A stretch of DNA of 64,000 nucleotides, from IMG/VR virus record IMGVR_UViG_3300033553_000165, positions 32,897 through 96,896 of that record; one strand, 5' to 3'. Under the pieces are notes generated by a model. The model did not search any database, was not told the origin of the DNA, and worked only from the letters and a program-made list of their open reading frames with translations. Shown here in pieces: positions 8,368 to 51,455 of this stretch. Source of the DNA: a virus. Made by a program: the position numbers and the translations under genes. The number at the start of each line of letters is the position of its first letter. The first letter of the stretch is position 1.

Positions 8368-8442
8368 TTACTGGGGGGTTGAGGGGATTTGTAATTAATA
8401 GTTAAATTTTTAACTAAAATCATAATAATTTAACGAAGTTAG

Positions 8443-22137: not shown

Positions 22138-22161
22138 ATCGCCTGTGGGGGATTTGTACGG

Positions 22162-22416
22162 TTAAACTAATTCTCTTTCCATTAGGGTGACTTCATAATC
22201 TCCAAAACTCGTGGCCCAATCTTCTATGATCTCTCCTACGGTTTCGCCTGTCTCCTCGGCTCTGAGTTTGGCCTCCTCAACTAATTGTTGACCACTGCCT
22301 TCATATATCCTTGGAAAATATAAACCCTTTTGAATACAAAGCCACTGTTCTGCCCTGTCGAAAGTTTCTTCGTCAACCCCTTCAATTATGATATTTAAAA
22401 TTATAGTATTTGCCAT
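22162..22416 (-). CDS. Hypothetical protein
   Basis: ORF track. Confidence 0.7.
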   Translation of the reverse strand: MANTIILNIIIEGVDEETFDRAEQWLCIQKGLYFPRIYEGSGQQLVEEAKLRAEETGETVGEIIEDWATSFGDYEVTLMERELV

Positions 22417-22452
22417 CTTGAAAATTTTTACGGTTAAAAATTAATTACCTTA

Positions 22453-25777: not shown

Positions 25778-26360
25778 AACCTCGCTTTTTATAAATCTTA
25801 GGATATTGAAGTTTTAATTCTTCCTTACATTCTTTTATTTTAGGGCATTTCATACATAATGGACTCTTGTGGTTATATAGGGTTGTTGCTAATAAACAAT
25901 TGTAAAACCCTTTAACCGTTCCGAAGAACCTAACTTTCTCATCTTCCTCAACGGGATTGAGATTTAAAAGCAAATCGTCCCAGTTTTCTTTTACTAACCT
26001 TGACTTCAATTTAACGTCCGTCTTCAGATTTTTTCTTACAATAAAACCTATAATTTTTTTATCAACCTTCTTCCACCTCGCAATAGCTTTCTTTCCCACA
26101 ATCCACTCAATCTGGATAGCCTTAACGGAGCTCTTACTGTCGTACTTGTACCAATGGTTAAATTGAAATTCAAAATACTGGCGAAGGTAATCTTCCTGGA
26201 GAACTTTAGTCTTGGAAAGTTCTTTTATATCCCGTACAAAATTCTCTATGGTTTTTTCCTTACTGTCCGTGATCTTAAATCTGTAATTGGTTACATTTAA
26301 TACACTGGAATAGTAGTATTTGAATAAATTTACAATTAATCTAAGTTCACTCTTTTTCAT
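25761..26360 (-). CDS. Hypothetical replication-module protein with C-terminal Cys cluster
   Basis: ORF track; C...CMKCPKIKEC. Confidence 0.65.
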   Translation of the reverse strand: MKKSELRLIVNLFKYYYSSVLNVTNYRFKITDSKEKTIENFVRDIKELSKTKVLQEDYLRQYFEFQFNHWYKYDSKSSVKAIQIEWIVGKKAIARWKKVDKKIIGFIVRKNLKTDVKLKSRLVKENWDDLLLNLNPVEEDEKVRFFGTVKGFYNCLLATTLYNHKSPLCMKCPKIKECKEELKLQYPKIYKKRGYGTSD

Positions 26361-27918
26361 TCAACCATTCTTTTATACTTTCAGTCATAAGGCTAAATTC
26401 GTCGAACATATAAACCTCAAGCCTATCGTTCGGAACTTCTTTACCGTAAACCTCTAATCTATTTAAACTATGTTCAGAAAAGTGCTTAGTTCCTACATCC
26501 ATAATATCTATAATCGCTGCCCGAGTCTTCCCCTCAATTGATCCTAGAACCCTTCCCTGCTTTTGTGTGATATTACTTCCTTCTAAACCTCCGTCGGCTA
26601 AAATCAGTATCTCTGCCTCCGGAAGTGTTATCCCTTTCTTGTAGATATTACTGGCCAATAAGATTTTCCCCTTTCCTTTCAAAAACTTTAATTTTGCCCG
26701 TTCTCGCTCGGTTGGTTTACTGTCCCCACTAATAAACATCTCACCCGTCTCCTCAGAAATAATATATCCGTGCTTCTTGGAATTAAATATGACTAAAGTT
26801 TTCCAGTGGTTCTTTTTACAAGTTTTGATTAATTTCGTAAGAATATGGTTCCGCTCGTCGTTGTGGTGAATTGTCTGAGAAAGATAATCGTGGTAACTTT
26901 CTGCCTTATAAATTCTATTGCGCCTTATGTAATCTGAATGATCATAACTAACCAAGAAAATTTTATCTAAGGCTAAAAATCCCTCATCTTGTAACCGCTT
27001 CTTTTTAACCTCATAACAGATGCCGCCAAAAAATCCTTTAATCTTCAGATTTTCAATCAACCCACCGACCTGTTTGAATGGCGTGGCTGAAAGTCCCAAA
27101 AGTTGATTCATACTTTTACAATTATTTAGAACATTCATACGTTTTGTACTTGAATATTCGTGAATCTCATCTACTATCAGAAAATCAACCTGACGCATAT
27201 ACTTTTGAACCCTTCGCTTCTCAGCATTCTTGATTTTATTCTTAGCTTTAATCTCTTCCTTGCTTAAACTTACCTTTTCCTTGTTAACGGTCTTACTTTC
27301 CGAAACTTTCCCGTACAATTTAGAAGTTAGCGTCTGGATCATAGCGACTGTTACTTGCTTGGGTTCAAAGCCTTTATCGTTAACATATCCCATATCTTCT
27401 AGATTGGCTCCTAAATATCCCGCAATTTCTTCTGTTGCTTGCTTAAATAAGTCAACCGTATCAACTACAAACAAAATATTCGCATTCTCATTAAATTGTA
27501 AAGTTTGCCGGATCGTTTCTGAAGCAATAAACGTTTTACCTCCCCTCGTGGGGACAATCATAATACCAATATTGTTTTTGAAAAATTCGTTAATGCCCTC
27601 CCTCTGGTGTGGGCGCAATTTTTTCGGCAAATCTTTGGGAATTATCTTATGTCGGCTAAATTTATAAGAATCCTTGATTTTGTATTGCAATTCATCCTTA
27701 TCCATATTGTAAATCACCTCATCCAGTAACCCAAAGTCAAAAAAGTCTTTTTTATCGTAAAATCGGTGATAACCATCCCAATCTCCTTTTTTAAAGATTT
27801 CAGAGAAATGAGCCCCATCTACATAAAATTCCAAATATTCCTTAACCCAACGTAATTCTCTTGGTTTATCAGCCGTTAATTTACAACGGGACATATTTAC
27901 ACGTGTTATCGTTATCAT
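26347..27918 (-). CDS. Superfamily 2 (UvsW-like) helicase
   Basis: LRPHQ, PTRGGKT, VDEIH, LSATP, GITLP, QKQGRVL. Confidence 0.92.
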   Translation of the reverse strand: MITITRVNMSRCKLTADKPRELRWVKEYLEFYVDGAHFSEIFKKGDWDGYHRFYDKKDFFDFGLLDEVIYNMDKDELQYKIKDSYKFSRHKIIPKDLPKKLRPHQREGINEFFKNNIGIMIVPTRGGKTFIASETIRQTLQFNENANILFVVDTVDLFKQATEEIAGYLGANLEDMGYVNDKGFEPKQVTVAMIQTLTSKLYGKVSESKTVNKEKVSLSKEEIKAKNKIKNAEKRRVQKYMRQVDFLIVDEIHEYSSTKRMNVLNNCKSMNQLLGLSATPFKQVGGLIENLKIKGFFGGICYEVKKKRLQDEGFLALDKIFLVSYDHSDYIRRNRIYKAESYHDYLSQTIHHNDERNHILTKLIKTCKKNHWKTLVIFNSKKHGYIISEETGEMFISGDSKPTERERAKLKFLKGKGKILLASNIYKKGITLPEAEILILADGGLEGSNITQKQGRVLGSIEGKTRAAIIDIMDVGTKHFSEHSLNRLEVYGKEVPNDRLEVYMFDEFSLMTESIKEWLNEKE

Positions 27919-27959
27919 AATTGGATTTTTCTAAAATAACGTTGTATGTGTTTTTGCTT

Positions 27960-28300
27960 TTTAGTTTAGAGATATCTTGAGAAATTTAGGTATAAGAGAC
28001 AAACCCCCTCCCCTCAATGTAAATTAATACATTAAAGGAAAAAAGTTTGTACCTAAACTATCAAGAATTACTTGAGCGAATTTGAGGCTGGCACGGCTCA
28101 CAACCCCTAAAAAGAACCAGTTGCCATTTAAACATAAGAAGTTTCTAAGATAACTTAGATTATAACTTCTCTCCCAACTAAACTTTGGTGAAAATCTTAT
28201 CGGTATCAGATTCTATACCTGATATTTTTAGGAAGGTAATAAAACGATTTTAAGGCATTTTAACGATGTGTTAGGGTTTTCTTAACTACTTACTTCCCTA
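27960..28300 (-). ncRNA. Candidate large structured non-coding RNA (or structured replication origin)
   Basis: ORF-free gap holding at least five hairpins, including a 23-bp uninterrupted stem (27999-28050) that pairs fully only on the minus strand, through 7 G.U pairs. Confidence 0.55.
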
Positions 28301-28341
28301 CGAAAAGTACAATTATAACCAATAGGATAAATGTGGAAACC

Positions 28342-28372
28342 AAAAGTGCCCTCTAGTATTTTAGAAGGCACT
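28342..28372 (-). terminator. Rho-independent terminator ending the structural operon
   Basis: Minus strand AGTGCCTTCTA-AAATAC-TAGAGGGCACT followed by TTT. Confidence 0.75.
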
Positions 28373-28399
28373 AATGAGAAAACAATAAAAAATCGAAAA

Positions 28400-49949: not shown

Positions 49950-51455
49950 TTATACTGGACTAACATTTCCAATATTCACGATACGCACCATTTTCTTTGG
50001 AGCATAAAGGAAAGGAGTACCGTAGAGTAAGATCATAAACCTATATGCTGGGCTTAAAAGCGCCAAGTCCATTTTCATAAGCGGAGCAAGTTGAGCGAAC
50101 TCAATTACTTCGTTATCCATTTGGAACAAGATAGCTTGGTCAGTATCCGGCATAAATCTGTTTCTGTCTCTTACCGCTCCAGCAGTAGCTCCGTCGTATC
50201 CAGCTGTCTTTTCAGCAGCAGAGATAGTGAAGACTGGGTAGAAAGTCGCTTCAGCAGCTGTAGCGGCACCCTTGTTAGAGCGATATACAGTGTAAGAAGT
50301 AGCTCCATTAGCACCTCCACCGTCAGTGAAAGCTAAGTCGGCAGACCCTCCTGCAACAATAGCAGTAGCTGTAGTGGCAGAACCAATAACAGCAAGAGTC
50401 GATTCACCATAACGGTTTGTAGCCGATACAGCGAAGAAATAGTTTCCAGCGTCAGTAGCTTCCCAAGCCGAACTTCCATCTGTTCCAACCGCAGTAAGAG
50501 ATACTGAAGCTACAGGGTTTGGAGCACTTGGGGAAGTGGCACCGTTAGTAAGTCTTTTTGTTGCTCTTTTGTTGAAGAAAATATCCCAGTTAAGTCCGAT
50601 ATTCCCAAATTGAGATTCGAAAGACTTAACCCTTTGACCCATCACACCCTCAGAAAGAGCATTCGTGTTAGGCTGGATAAATTTATTCCCGTAGAAATTC
50701 TTCACAAAGTTGGAAAGAACTTTTGGCGGAGCGAATAACTGGTTTCCTAAACCGAAGTTCTGGATGATACCGTTCGCTGAATCCTCAATAACTTCTTCGC
50801 TCAACATTTTACCTTTAGCGTTGATAACTACTTCAGAACCGAAGTAAGCATCTAAATCCGCATATCCGGAATTTCTTTGGTGTTGTGCAAGGAAACCGTT
50901 AAATTCCTGAGGAACTAAGGTTTCGTCACCGAAGTAAAGAGACTTGTTCAATTGGCGCAATATCCACATTGTACCATTTTTGATTTCTCTCTCTACTACG
51001 TTTCCAACGTGAGTGTTAACTAAGGTCATAGGGTGAGTCACTGACTTCACAACTCCCATAAACTTCACTAACTGTGCACGTCTAACGTAAGTAGAGTCTT
51101 CCTCATTCGGAAGTTCTCCTTCGTTGTAAAATCCTCCTCTTTCCTGACCGTAAGATACAAGCTGGTTGTATTCTTCTACAGTGTTGTAGGCAGATTTCTT
51201 AGGGACCATTTTCCAGAAAACGATGTCGCTTTCCTTAAATGTTAAGTGCTTTAGAGTCTTGTCTAGACTTTCAACTTTCAAAGGAGCACCAGACGCTGTT
51301 GACGAATCTGCGGTATCTCTACCTGTAATCGACCCAGCCTCAAGTGCTTTTTGTAGTTGGTTTAATTCCTCCATAGAAGAACCGCCTGCGATTGAGCCCT
51401 GTCCATTACTTGCAGCAGCTTTAGCATAATCGGCTAAATTTAATCCTGGTGTCAT
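49950..51455 (-). CDS. Major capsid protein (SPO1/Twort-like)
   Basis: LQKALEAG, GAPLKVESLD, TVEEY, FYNEG, LYFGD...EFNG, QLAPLMKMDLA, LYGTPFLYAPKK. Confidence 0.92.
   Translation of the reverse strand: MTPGLNLADYAKAAASNGQGSIAGGSSMEELNQLQKALEAGSITGRDTADSSTASGAPLKVESLDKTLKHLTFKESDIVFWKMVPKKSAYNTVEEYNQLVSYGQERGGFYNEGELPNEEDSTYVRRAQLVKFMGVVKSVTHPMTLVNTHVGNVVEREIKNGTMWILRQLNKSLYFGDETLVPQEFNGFLAQHQRNSGYADLDAYFGSEVVINAKGKMLSEEVIEDSANGIIQNFGLGNQLFAPPKVLSNFVKNFYGNKFIQPNTNALSEGVMGQRVKSFESQFGNIGLNWDIFFNKRATKRLTNGATSPSAPNPVASVSLTAVGTDGSSAWEATDAGNYFFAVSATNRYGESTLAVIGSATTATAIVAGGSADLAFTDGGGANGATSYTVYRSNKGAATAAEATFYPVFTISAAEKTAGYDGATAGAVRDRNRFMPDTDQAILFQMDNEVIEFAQLAPLMKMDLALLSPAYRFMILLYGTPFLYAPKKMVRIVNIGNVSPV

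Follow-up and report, generated by a model that had tools for sequence, protein, structure and literature searches.

Genomic context of the intergenic region

The DNA analysed here, a stretch of 64,000 nt that we refer to as the window, comprises bases 32897-96896 of a viral record of 96,896 bp in IMG/VR that is rated 98% complete. The minus strand of the window carries all ORFs of at least 100 aa, bar those nested in longer ORFs on the opposite strand. Between the tail module and the replication module lies an ORF-free gap of 481 nt (27919-28399), which is, as the original prediction had it, the largest non-coding gap of the window, counted between ORFs of at least 100 aa. On its upstream side (in sense direction) the gap is flanked by a 265-aa ORF, with two large ORFs without family matches and a baseplate-wedge gene before them. 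A predicted intrinsic terminator at 28345-28372 (minus strand), made up of a stem of 11 bp with a U tract behind it, closes this tail-module operon. On the downstream side, the first gene of the replication operon encodes a UvsW-like SF2 helicase (26347-27918, minus strand; Pfam UvsW_N, ResIII and Helicase_C; PHROG DNA helicase), followed by a 199-aa ORF, an Ant/KilAC-like protein, a DnaB-like helicase and a primase, with the DNA polymerase further on. Both the location downstream of a terminator and the location at the junction of structural and replication genes had been proposed before and agree with this annotation.

A DNA search of the gap against 50,697 phage records gave no match, protein searches in cultured phages found no helicase above about 30% identity, and a tRNA/tmRNA scan found none. 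When all 4,227 Rfam 15 families were searched with cmscan, none reached its gathering score in the window or in 13 related loci; a permissive Rfam scan of the gap itself returned only miRNA and snoRNA noise with E values of 0.45-10, far below gathering scores. A match to a described family, which would have removed the novelty of the proposed RNA, was thus not obtained for the element. According to our predictions, the gap preceding the replication genes of this uncultured phage holds a single-copy, strand-specific structured RNA element.

Folding and strand specificity

Folding the minus (sense) strand of the entire gap (RNAfold, 481 nt) gave -123.2 kcal/mol with a z-score of -5.67, and none of 100 shuffles was as good, versus -103.8 kcal/mol and a z-score of -3.21 for the plus strand; the strand preference anticipated by the original prediction is therefore reproduced by strand-specific z-scores. 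We also scanned the sense strand of the 96.9-kb genome in 241-nt segments with a 40-nt step. Two segments over the 241-nt core of the gap rank third and fourth for stability among about 2,400, despite a G+C content of the core that is average for the genome. The most stable 241-nt folds of the genome (-74 to -76 kcal/mol) are found at 50160-50520 of the window (minus strand), inside a 501-aa ORF (49950-51455). The sense-minus-antisense energy of the core is -24.6 kcal/mol versus -6.8 +/- 8.9 kcal/mol in 150 random genome segments, and its strand asymmetry therefore exceeds the background that the strand composition of the genome creates. In every family member (see below) the sense strand is more stable than the antisense strand, by 6-33 kcal/mol. 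With G.U pairs and an asymmetric folding energy, the region shows the strand specificity that is characteristic of a structured RNA.

At the heart of the original prediction was an uninterrupted 23-bp helix, which we recovered exactly as described: on the minus strand, a CU-rich 5' arm (28028-28050) pairs with a G-rich 3' arm (27999-28021), and reading the pairs one by one gives seven G.U pairs, at U7-U10, U12, U15 and U17 of the 5' arm. The CU-rich arm is assigned by sequence and MFE structure, and an equivalent is found only in a subset of relatives. The G-rich arm (GAGGGGAGGGGGUUUGU) is at the same time the start of a repeat unit termed unit 2 below and is followed by a U-rich tract; the motif AAGGGGGWAAGGGGG.UUUG, located at this arm, is conserved in the alignments with relatives. 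The extensions of the helix by UUUAGGU/ACCUAAA and UCUUGA/UCAAGA are both part of the MFE fold. Among the additional hairpins that had been listed, those at 28090-28126, 28137-28170 and 28204-28224 are present in the MFE structure, whereas the hairpin at 28271-28300 represents just one among several alternative foldings. Three of them (28137-28170, 28204-28224 and 28271-28300) are specific to this phage; the hairpin at 28137-28170 (minus strand, in the MFE structure) separates the CAAAGUU box from hairpin A and is absent from the relatives' alignment. A similar picture emerged for the helix between 28170-28182 and 27960-27972 that was thought to close a multibranch domain: the two segments are indeed 85% complementary, but the helix enters the MFE structure only if the transcript is cut at 27950, not in the full gap, and no equivalent was found in the relatives.

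A conserved element upstream of related helicase genes

Relatives were collected by a helicase search followed by alignment-based scans of IMG/VR and metagenomes, which yielded 160 loci; a single-protein helicase scan of IMG/VR returned none. The two closest helicases are P0002 (81% identity) and P0003 (63%); covariation, also that in the 23-bp helix, was assessed among relatives at 38-51% helicase identity. In all loci with 40-51% helicase identity (L002-L012 and L083) synteny is preserved, with an upstream gene, the gap, the helicase gene and a gene for a protein of about 200 aa. The gaps of the relatives span 224-370 nt (871 nt in L010). A terminator is found after the upstream gene in L002-L010, and directly after it in L003, L005 and L007.

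The proteins are only about 50% identical, yet the 3' half of the gap keeps conserved nucleotide blocks. Their order is CAAAGUU box, GUUAAAU, hairpin A, GCCUCAA, a small variable hairpin, AAGGGGGWAAGGGGG.UUUG and GACCU.AAUUUCUGA, the last of which ends 20-35 nt before the ATG in most relatives and about 55 nt before it in the window phage. The CAAAGUU box (28181-28187, minus strand) is conserved 15-20 nt upstream of hairpin A and resides in the 3' arm of a "hairpin 0" in the window phage. In the genome of this phage, 13 of the 26 copies of CAAAGTT lie 15-150 nt upstream of gene starts, versus 17% expected (p = 1e-4).

A covariance model, R1, was built from ten sequences, i.e. the window and nine relatives. 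Its sole match in the window defines the whole conserved element (27971-28135, minus strand; 107.9 bits, with E about 2e-16 in one search and 3.5e-17 in another). The nine relatives (38-51% helicase identity) are matched with 93-155 bits and one copy per locus, and in all nine the element of about 120-175 nt is located just upstream of the helicase start on the same strand. Five relative genome records, four of them rated 100% complete, were searched as a whole and each contained one strong match. In more than 100 more distant loci R1 found no match; four more divergent loci (L010, L034, L093 and L096) display the same architecture by eye, below the reach of the model. When IMG/VR was scanned with the G-run and UUUG..GAC as an exact pattern, only known members and chance matches were retrieved, and R1 found nothing in the latter. 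Judged from sequence comparison, the element is a new family within a known kind of element, shared by about ten related phages.

For three complete relative genomes (L009, L008 and L004; G002-G004), IMG/VR lists direct terminal repeats. The element is 7-40 kb away from the nearer contig end in these genomes and hence not at their assembled termini. A further group of contigs of about 100 kb from the human gut (L020-L033, L097-L112 and L176) encodes a helicase that is 34-37% identical and is devoid of the element; in L020, the one such contig examined, the stretch upstream of the helicase gene looks coding. One 97-kb contig of this group was binned in a MAG of an uncultured member of the Bacteroidales, a weak hint at the host of the wider group.

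Hairpin A and the lineage-specific long helix

Hairpin A (28090-28126, minus strand) consists of a covarying stem with conserved UUC/GAG closing pairs and a conserved loop of 13-15 nt, UUUU.GGGG.UUGU. Covariation in homologous intergenic regions, proposed earlier as a check, was found here to be genuine: across the ten sequences, nine of ten pairs are changed on both sides in a compensatory manner and 96% of cells are paired, a covariation score that none of 500 shuffles reached, and sliding the partner columns lowered the paired fraction to 41-55%. Its pairs are thus kept through compensatory changes, as is typical of structured RNAs. Six of the ten sequences have U.G at one of the pairs, which assigns the structure to the sense strand.

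For the helices formed by the G-run and its CU-rich partners, the sequences are conserved and vary on one side only, and no compensatory changes were seen; judged from this sequence conservation, pairing of the G-run with the CU-rich partners is plausible. This half of the element was analysed by per-sequence folds, since MAFFT/RNAalifold misaligns the arms. The long G.U helix is present in the window phage, L002/L004, L007 and L013, weak in L008 and absent from L003, L005, L006 and L009. The latter four have no upstream CU arm, and their G-run pairs with the downstream sequence GACCUUUUACUCU instead. As the long helix is lineage-specific, only six of the ten members show a strongly negative thermodynamic z-score for the element, and the values for L003, L008 and L009 are unremarkable. 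The 23-bp G.U helix emphasized by the original prediction is therefore an elaboration confined to a subset of these phages. From the alignments, hairpin A is the best-supported predicted structure, and the emphasis should move to this hairpin and the duplicated unit to which it belongs.

An internal duplication with two predicted alternative folds

Internally, the element consists of two tandem copies of a unit of 45-60 nt, which is composed of a G-run, UUUGU, CCU.AAU and a tail termed X. Unit 1, whose core is hairpin A, starts in the hairpin A loop and comprises the G-run, UUGU, the 3' arm of the stem, GCCUCAA.., (GA)UG and tail X; unit 2 comprises the G-run(s), UUUGU, .., GACCU.AAU.., CUG and tail X. 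Compared with shuffles, the alignment of unit 1 with unit 2 reached z-scores of 3-8 in 9 of the 13 members; the divergent loci L034, L093 and L096 show the repeat most clearly. In the 96.9-kb genome the unit motif occurs exactly twice, both copies being located in the element. According to the alignment, tail X varies among phages and is identical in both units within any one phage: CUCAAG in the window phage, UGGGAAUA in L002, UGAGUAAA in L005, UGAGUAG in L006, UGAAAUA in L007 and UGAAUAU in L009.

In the window phage, a segment that we call the anti-unit (UCUUGAUAGUUUAGGU, 28051-28066, minus strand) can pair with the tail of either unit. The unit-1 tail (CCUCAAAUUCGCUCAAG, CCU box plus X1; 28071-28087, minus strand) pairs with it in folds of the nascent transcript, and pairing with the unit-2 tail (ACCUAAAUUUCUCAAGA, CCU box plus X2; 27975-27991, minus strand) forms the outer stems of the long hairpin. 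In a series of MFE folds of increasing transcript length, the unit-1 tail (GCCU..AAAUU..CUCAAG) first pairs with the CUUGA.AGUUU.AGGU segment; after addition of unit 2, this segment switches to the unit-2 tail (ACCU.AAAUUUC.UCAAGA), making the outer stems of the long hairpin. To either fold an energy was assigned by removing one of the tails. With the unit-2 tail removed, the MFE is -36.1 kcal/mol in the window phage, -32.1 in L004, -25.3 in L007 and -27.8 in L002; with the unit-1 tail removed, the corresponding values are -39.7, -32.0, -23.4 and -26.3 kcal/mol. The two predicted folds are thus nearly isoenergetic in these four phages, and in silico one segment has two alternative partners at comparable energies, which is the property expected of a switch. 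In the short-form phages the G-run acts as the middle segment, for which the CCU boxes of both units compete. The repeat together with the middle segment suggests, at the level of folding models, the logic of a leader switch or attenuator.

A candidate leader switch of the replication operon

The element is preceded by a terminator and is too near the ATG to leave room for a promoter plus UTR, so it must either be transcribed or itself be the promoter region. If it is transcribed, the promoter would be located in the variable 100-150 nt after the terminator. The covarying stem of hairpin A and the G.U pairs that exist in the sense strand only point to a single-stranded sense molecule, for which RNA is the simplest candidate. 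A candidate sigma-70-like promoter, TTTCCA-16-TATAAT (28312-28339, minus strand; 10 of 12 matches), would give rise to a leader of about 385 nt. The count of sigma-70-like sites is within the expectation from shuffles, and scans of L003, L005 and L007 revealed no equivalent of this site. In a search for Bacteroidota-type promoters (TTTG...TAnnTTTG), such boxes were not enriched on the sense strand of the genome, and none stood out clearly in the gap.

Among the three options offered by the original prediction, a long regulatory leader of the helicase operon fits best, its interpretation as a switch having been derived in silico. Including the sub-case of an attenuator, a leader switch for the replication operon is probable in our view. 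For the more specific proposal of a cis-acting structured 5' leader RNA that switches the operon encoding the UvsW-like helicase, the DnaB-like helicase, the primase and further replication proteins, we consider the chances to be about even. Transcription of the region is inferred here, as are the working of the switch in vivo and the step that it would control.

The mechanism could be envisaged as follows. Transcription would restart past the terminator that closes the tail operon, and hairpin A would form first in the new transcript, showing the G-run motif of unit 1 in its loop. Unit 2, the second copy of the unit, would then be transcribed. A middle segment complementary to both tails, represented by the AGGU-containing anti-unit in the long forms or by the G-run in the short forms, would then have two options. 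In the first fold, unit 1 would pair with the anti-unit segment, leaving the unit-2 tail free; in the second, the anti-unit would pair with unit 2, and the sequence immediately before the start codon of the helicase gene would be locked in a long G.U-rich helix. The selection between the two folds might be made by a trans-acting factor, most likely a protein recognising the repeated G-run unit, or by the kinetics of co-transcriptional folding. The chosen fold may in turn govern the initiation of translation, RNA processing or read-through to the helicase operon. In large uncultured phages, the timing of replication-gene expression and the sites at which replication starts are very poorly understood. 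The element is a compact (about 120-175 nt) single-copy candidate that marks the late/replication boundary across the clade, and if it is a switch, it would provide a new handle on phage gene timing as well as a new RNA family for databases. A leader peptide following the G-run was considered and rejected, as the conserved frame carries an in-frame UGA in L002, L008 and L009.

Alternative interpretations

The third option named at the outset, a primer or origin structure, would make the element an origin at which a primer or R-loop RNA acts: the non-template G-runs, first the GGGG of hairpin A and then GAGGGGAGGGGG, would lead to a persistent hybrid of RNA and DNA, by which the origin would be primed or opened, with the folded upstream hairpins controlling hybrid formation. 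We regard this as rather unlikely, although several features point to it. Each genome record searched has one copy of the locus, which lies directly upstream of the replication module with the UvsW-like helicase in first place; clustered G-runs are conserved on the sense (non-template) strand, and direct repeats are present. GC skew is negative throughout, at about -0.24 across the replication and nucleotide-metabolism block and about -0.15 across the structural block, and its slope changes near positions -6000 and 28000 of the window, the latter being at the gap. The skew, however, never changes sign, and with all genes on one strand it cannot locate an origin. There are only two repeat units of 45-60 nt, far longer than classical iterons and without further copies in the genome, and their spacing varies from about 56 to 105 nt among phages, which argues against an iteron-type origin; nor was a distinct AT-rich unwinding block identified in a region that is AT-rich throughout. 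An intramolecular three-tetrad G-quadruplex was also considered and rejected, because there is no conserved fourth G-run.

G-rich primer-forming or R-loop systems are represented by ColE1 RNA II and mitochondrial CSB II. Our element shares with them the clusters of non-template G-runs, which would lie downstream of a presumed promoter, the predicted folding of the upstream RNA and the location next to replication functions, but no RNase H or processing site was identified in it. By analogy, the element could be the replication origin of this clade of uncultured phages of about 90-100 kb, working through a folded G-rich primer or R-loop RNA with the UvsW-like helicase acting on the hybrid, a proposal that we rate as unlikely; within it, the two-fold switch would decide whether the RNA primes DNA synthesis or serves as mRNA. 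If the element were an origin, it would be a rare case of RNA-primed initiation in a tailed phage.

Within the leader-switch reading, the element might function more narrowly as an attenuator: the hairpin formed by the CU arm and the G arm in the long forms, together with the U-rich tract (UUUGUCUCUU), would be an intrinsic terminator, and an alternative fold or a protein would allow read-through. Indeed, 28001-28048 was flagged as terminator-like in our scan, 5-6 U residues occur within the 8 nt after the G-run in all ten close members, and in seven members with a hairpin ending at the G-run the 75-nt 3' segments fold at -10 to -23 kcal/mol. On the other hand, no convincing hairpin precedes the U tract in L003, L005 and L006, and the stems are poor in G-C pairs. 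Moreover, a G is conserved within the "U tract", and the tract is found again in the hairpin A loop; it thus behaves as a sequence motif rather than as a generic tail. Altogether, we consider attenuation quite unlikely.

The two units could also act at the level of duplex DNA, either as binding sites for a phage regulator or initiator or as tandem promoters of the helicase operon. Such a site could account for the concerted evolution of the two direct repeats and for the fact that the primary sequence of the G-run and GACCU.AAU is kept whichever partner pairs; in L005, sigma-70-like pairs are even found inside both units (TTGTCA-16-TATGAT and TTGAGA-17-AATTAT). But these promoter-like hexamers are not conserved in the window phage, L003 and L007, and the G-run and the CCU box are spaced differently in the two units. 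A DNA site would also leave the compensatory changes in hairpin A and the sense-only G.U pairs unexplained, as well as the observation that every member keeps CU-rich partners of the G-run that pair only if G.U is allowed. If, as the MFE predictions suggest, both flanking segments have to pair with one middle segment, the concerted evolution of the units would be explained without invoking a DNA-binding protein. We judge a DNA-level site to be very unlikely.

Finally, the G-rich arm could belong to a trans-acting sRNA that pairs with the C-rich leader sequences (ACAAAUCCCC) found at 8383-8393 and 22148-22158, ahead of other operons, and both C-rich sites (TACAAATCCCC..) are indeed located in leaders on the sense (minus) strand, 10-20 nt upstream of a start codon; this is highly improbable, however, since the number of matches is at chance level (2 found versus 1.69 expected), the only gene-sense complements in four relative genome records are the element's own G-runs in reverse, the G-run is buried in a helix, and the element is not followed by a canonical terminator before the helicase ATG, the sole terminator-like site being internal, which makes a free-standing small RNA unlikely. 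An extra match in the L005 genome (8182-8190) is on the other strand and hence a further copy of the G-run rather than a target. The suggestion of an undescribed phage ncRNA therefore holds insofar as the element is non-coding and absent from Rfam, whereas a free-standing ncRNA is the least supported of the three options.

Comparison with described RNA elements

Leader switches built from three segments are known from trp-type attenuators, from the RAT/terminator pairs bound by LicT or SacY, and from PyrR leaders. Like these, the element is the predicted 5' leader of an operon, in which two similar flanks are alternative partners of a middle segment, one fold hides the sequence at the gene start or forms a terminator-like hairpin, and a conserved loop on a covarying stem resembles a typical site for a protein or ligand. 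Unlike them, it has no leader peptide and no match to a described family, and its competing segments derive from a full tandem duplication of the 45-60-nt unit.

A second comparison can be made with the nut sites of phage lambda and the put sites of HK022, which, as is presumed for hairpin A, are promoter-proximal phage hairpins, and which likewise have a conserved loop and a variable stem. Conserved single-stranded boxes flank hairpin A (GUUAAAU upstream and GCCUCAA downstream), and the element is located ahead of a long block of co-directional genes. It differs in having no similarity to boxA or boxB and in its two-unit G-run repeat, and no N-like protein was identified. The Rfam "ssNA-helicase" motif occurs near helicase genes; it has in common with our element that a conserved structured non-coding element is located beside a helicase gene in uncultured phage-like sequences, but the element has no Rfam match at gathering score. 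A literature search on this motif found nothing relevant.

Other recurrent leader sequences

Apart from the element, several start codons are preceded, at a distance of about 20 nt, by a recurrent motif, TTTTAACCGTAAAAA..TTTCAAnATG. In the window it is found at 22415-22440 (minus strand), 38150 and 33601, and outside the window at genome positions 70668, 79351 and 79512 (sense strand). Two of the copies have TATCTTTGTAAGGTA in front of them, a sequence that includes a Bacteroidota-style TAnnTTTG box. Heptamers with enrichment upstream of genes include AACCGTA (9 of 17 copies). By its sequence and location, the motif might serve this phage as a signal in promoters or leaders.
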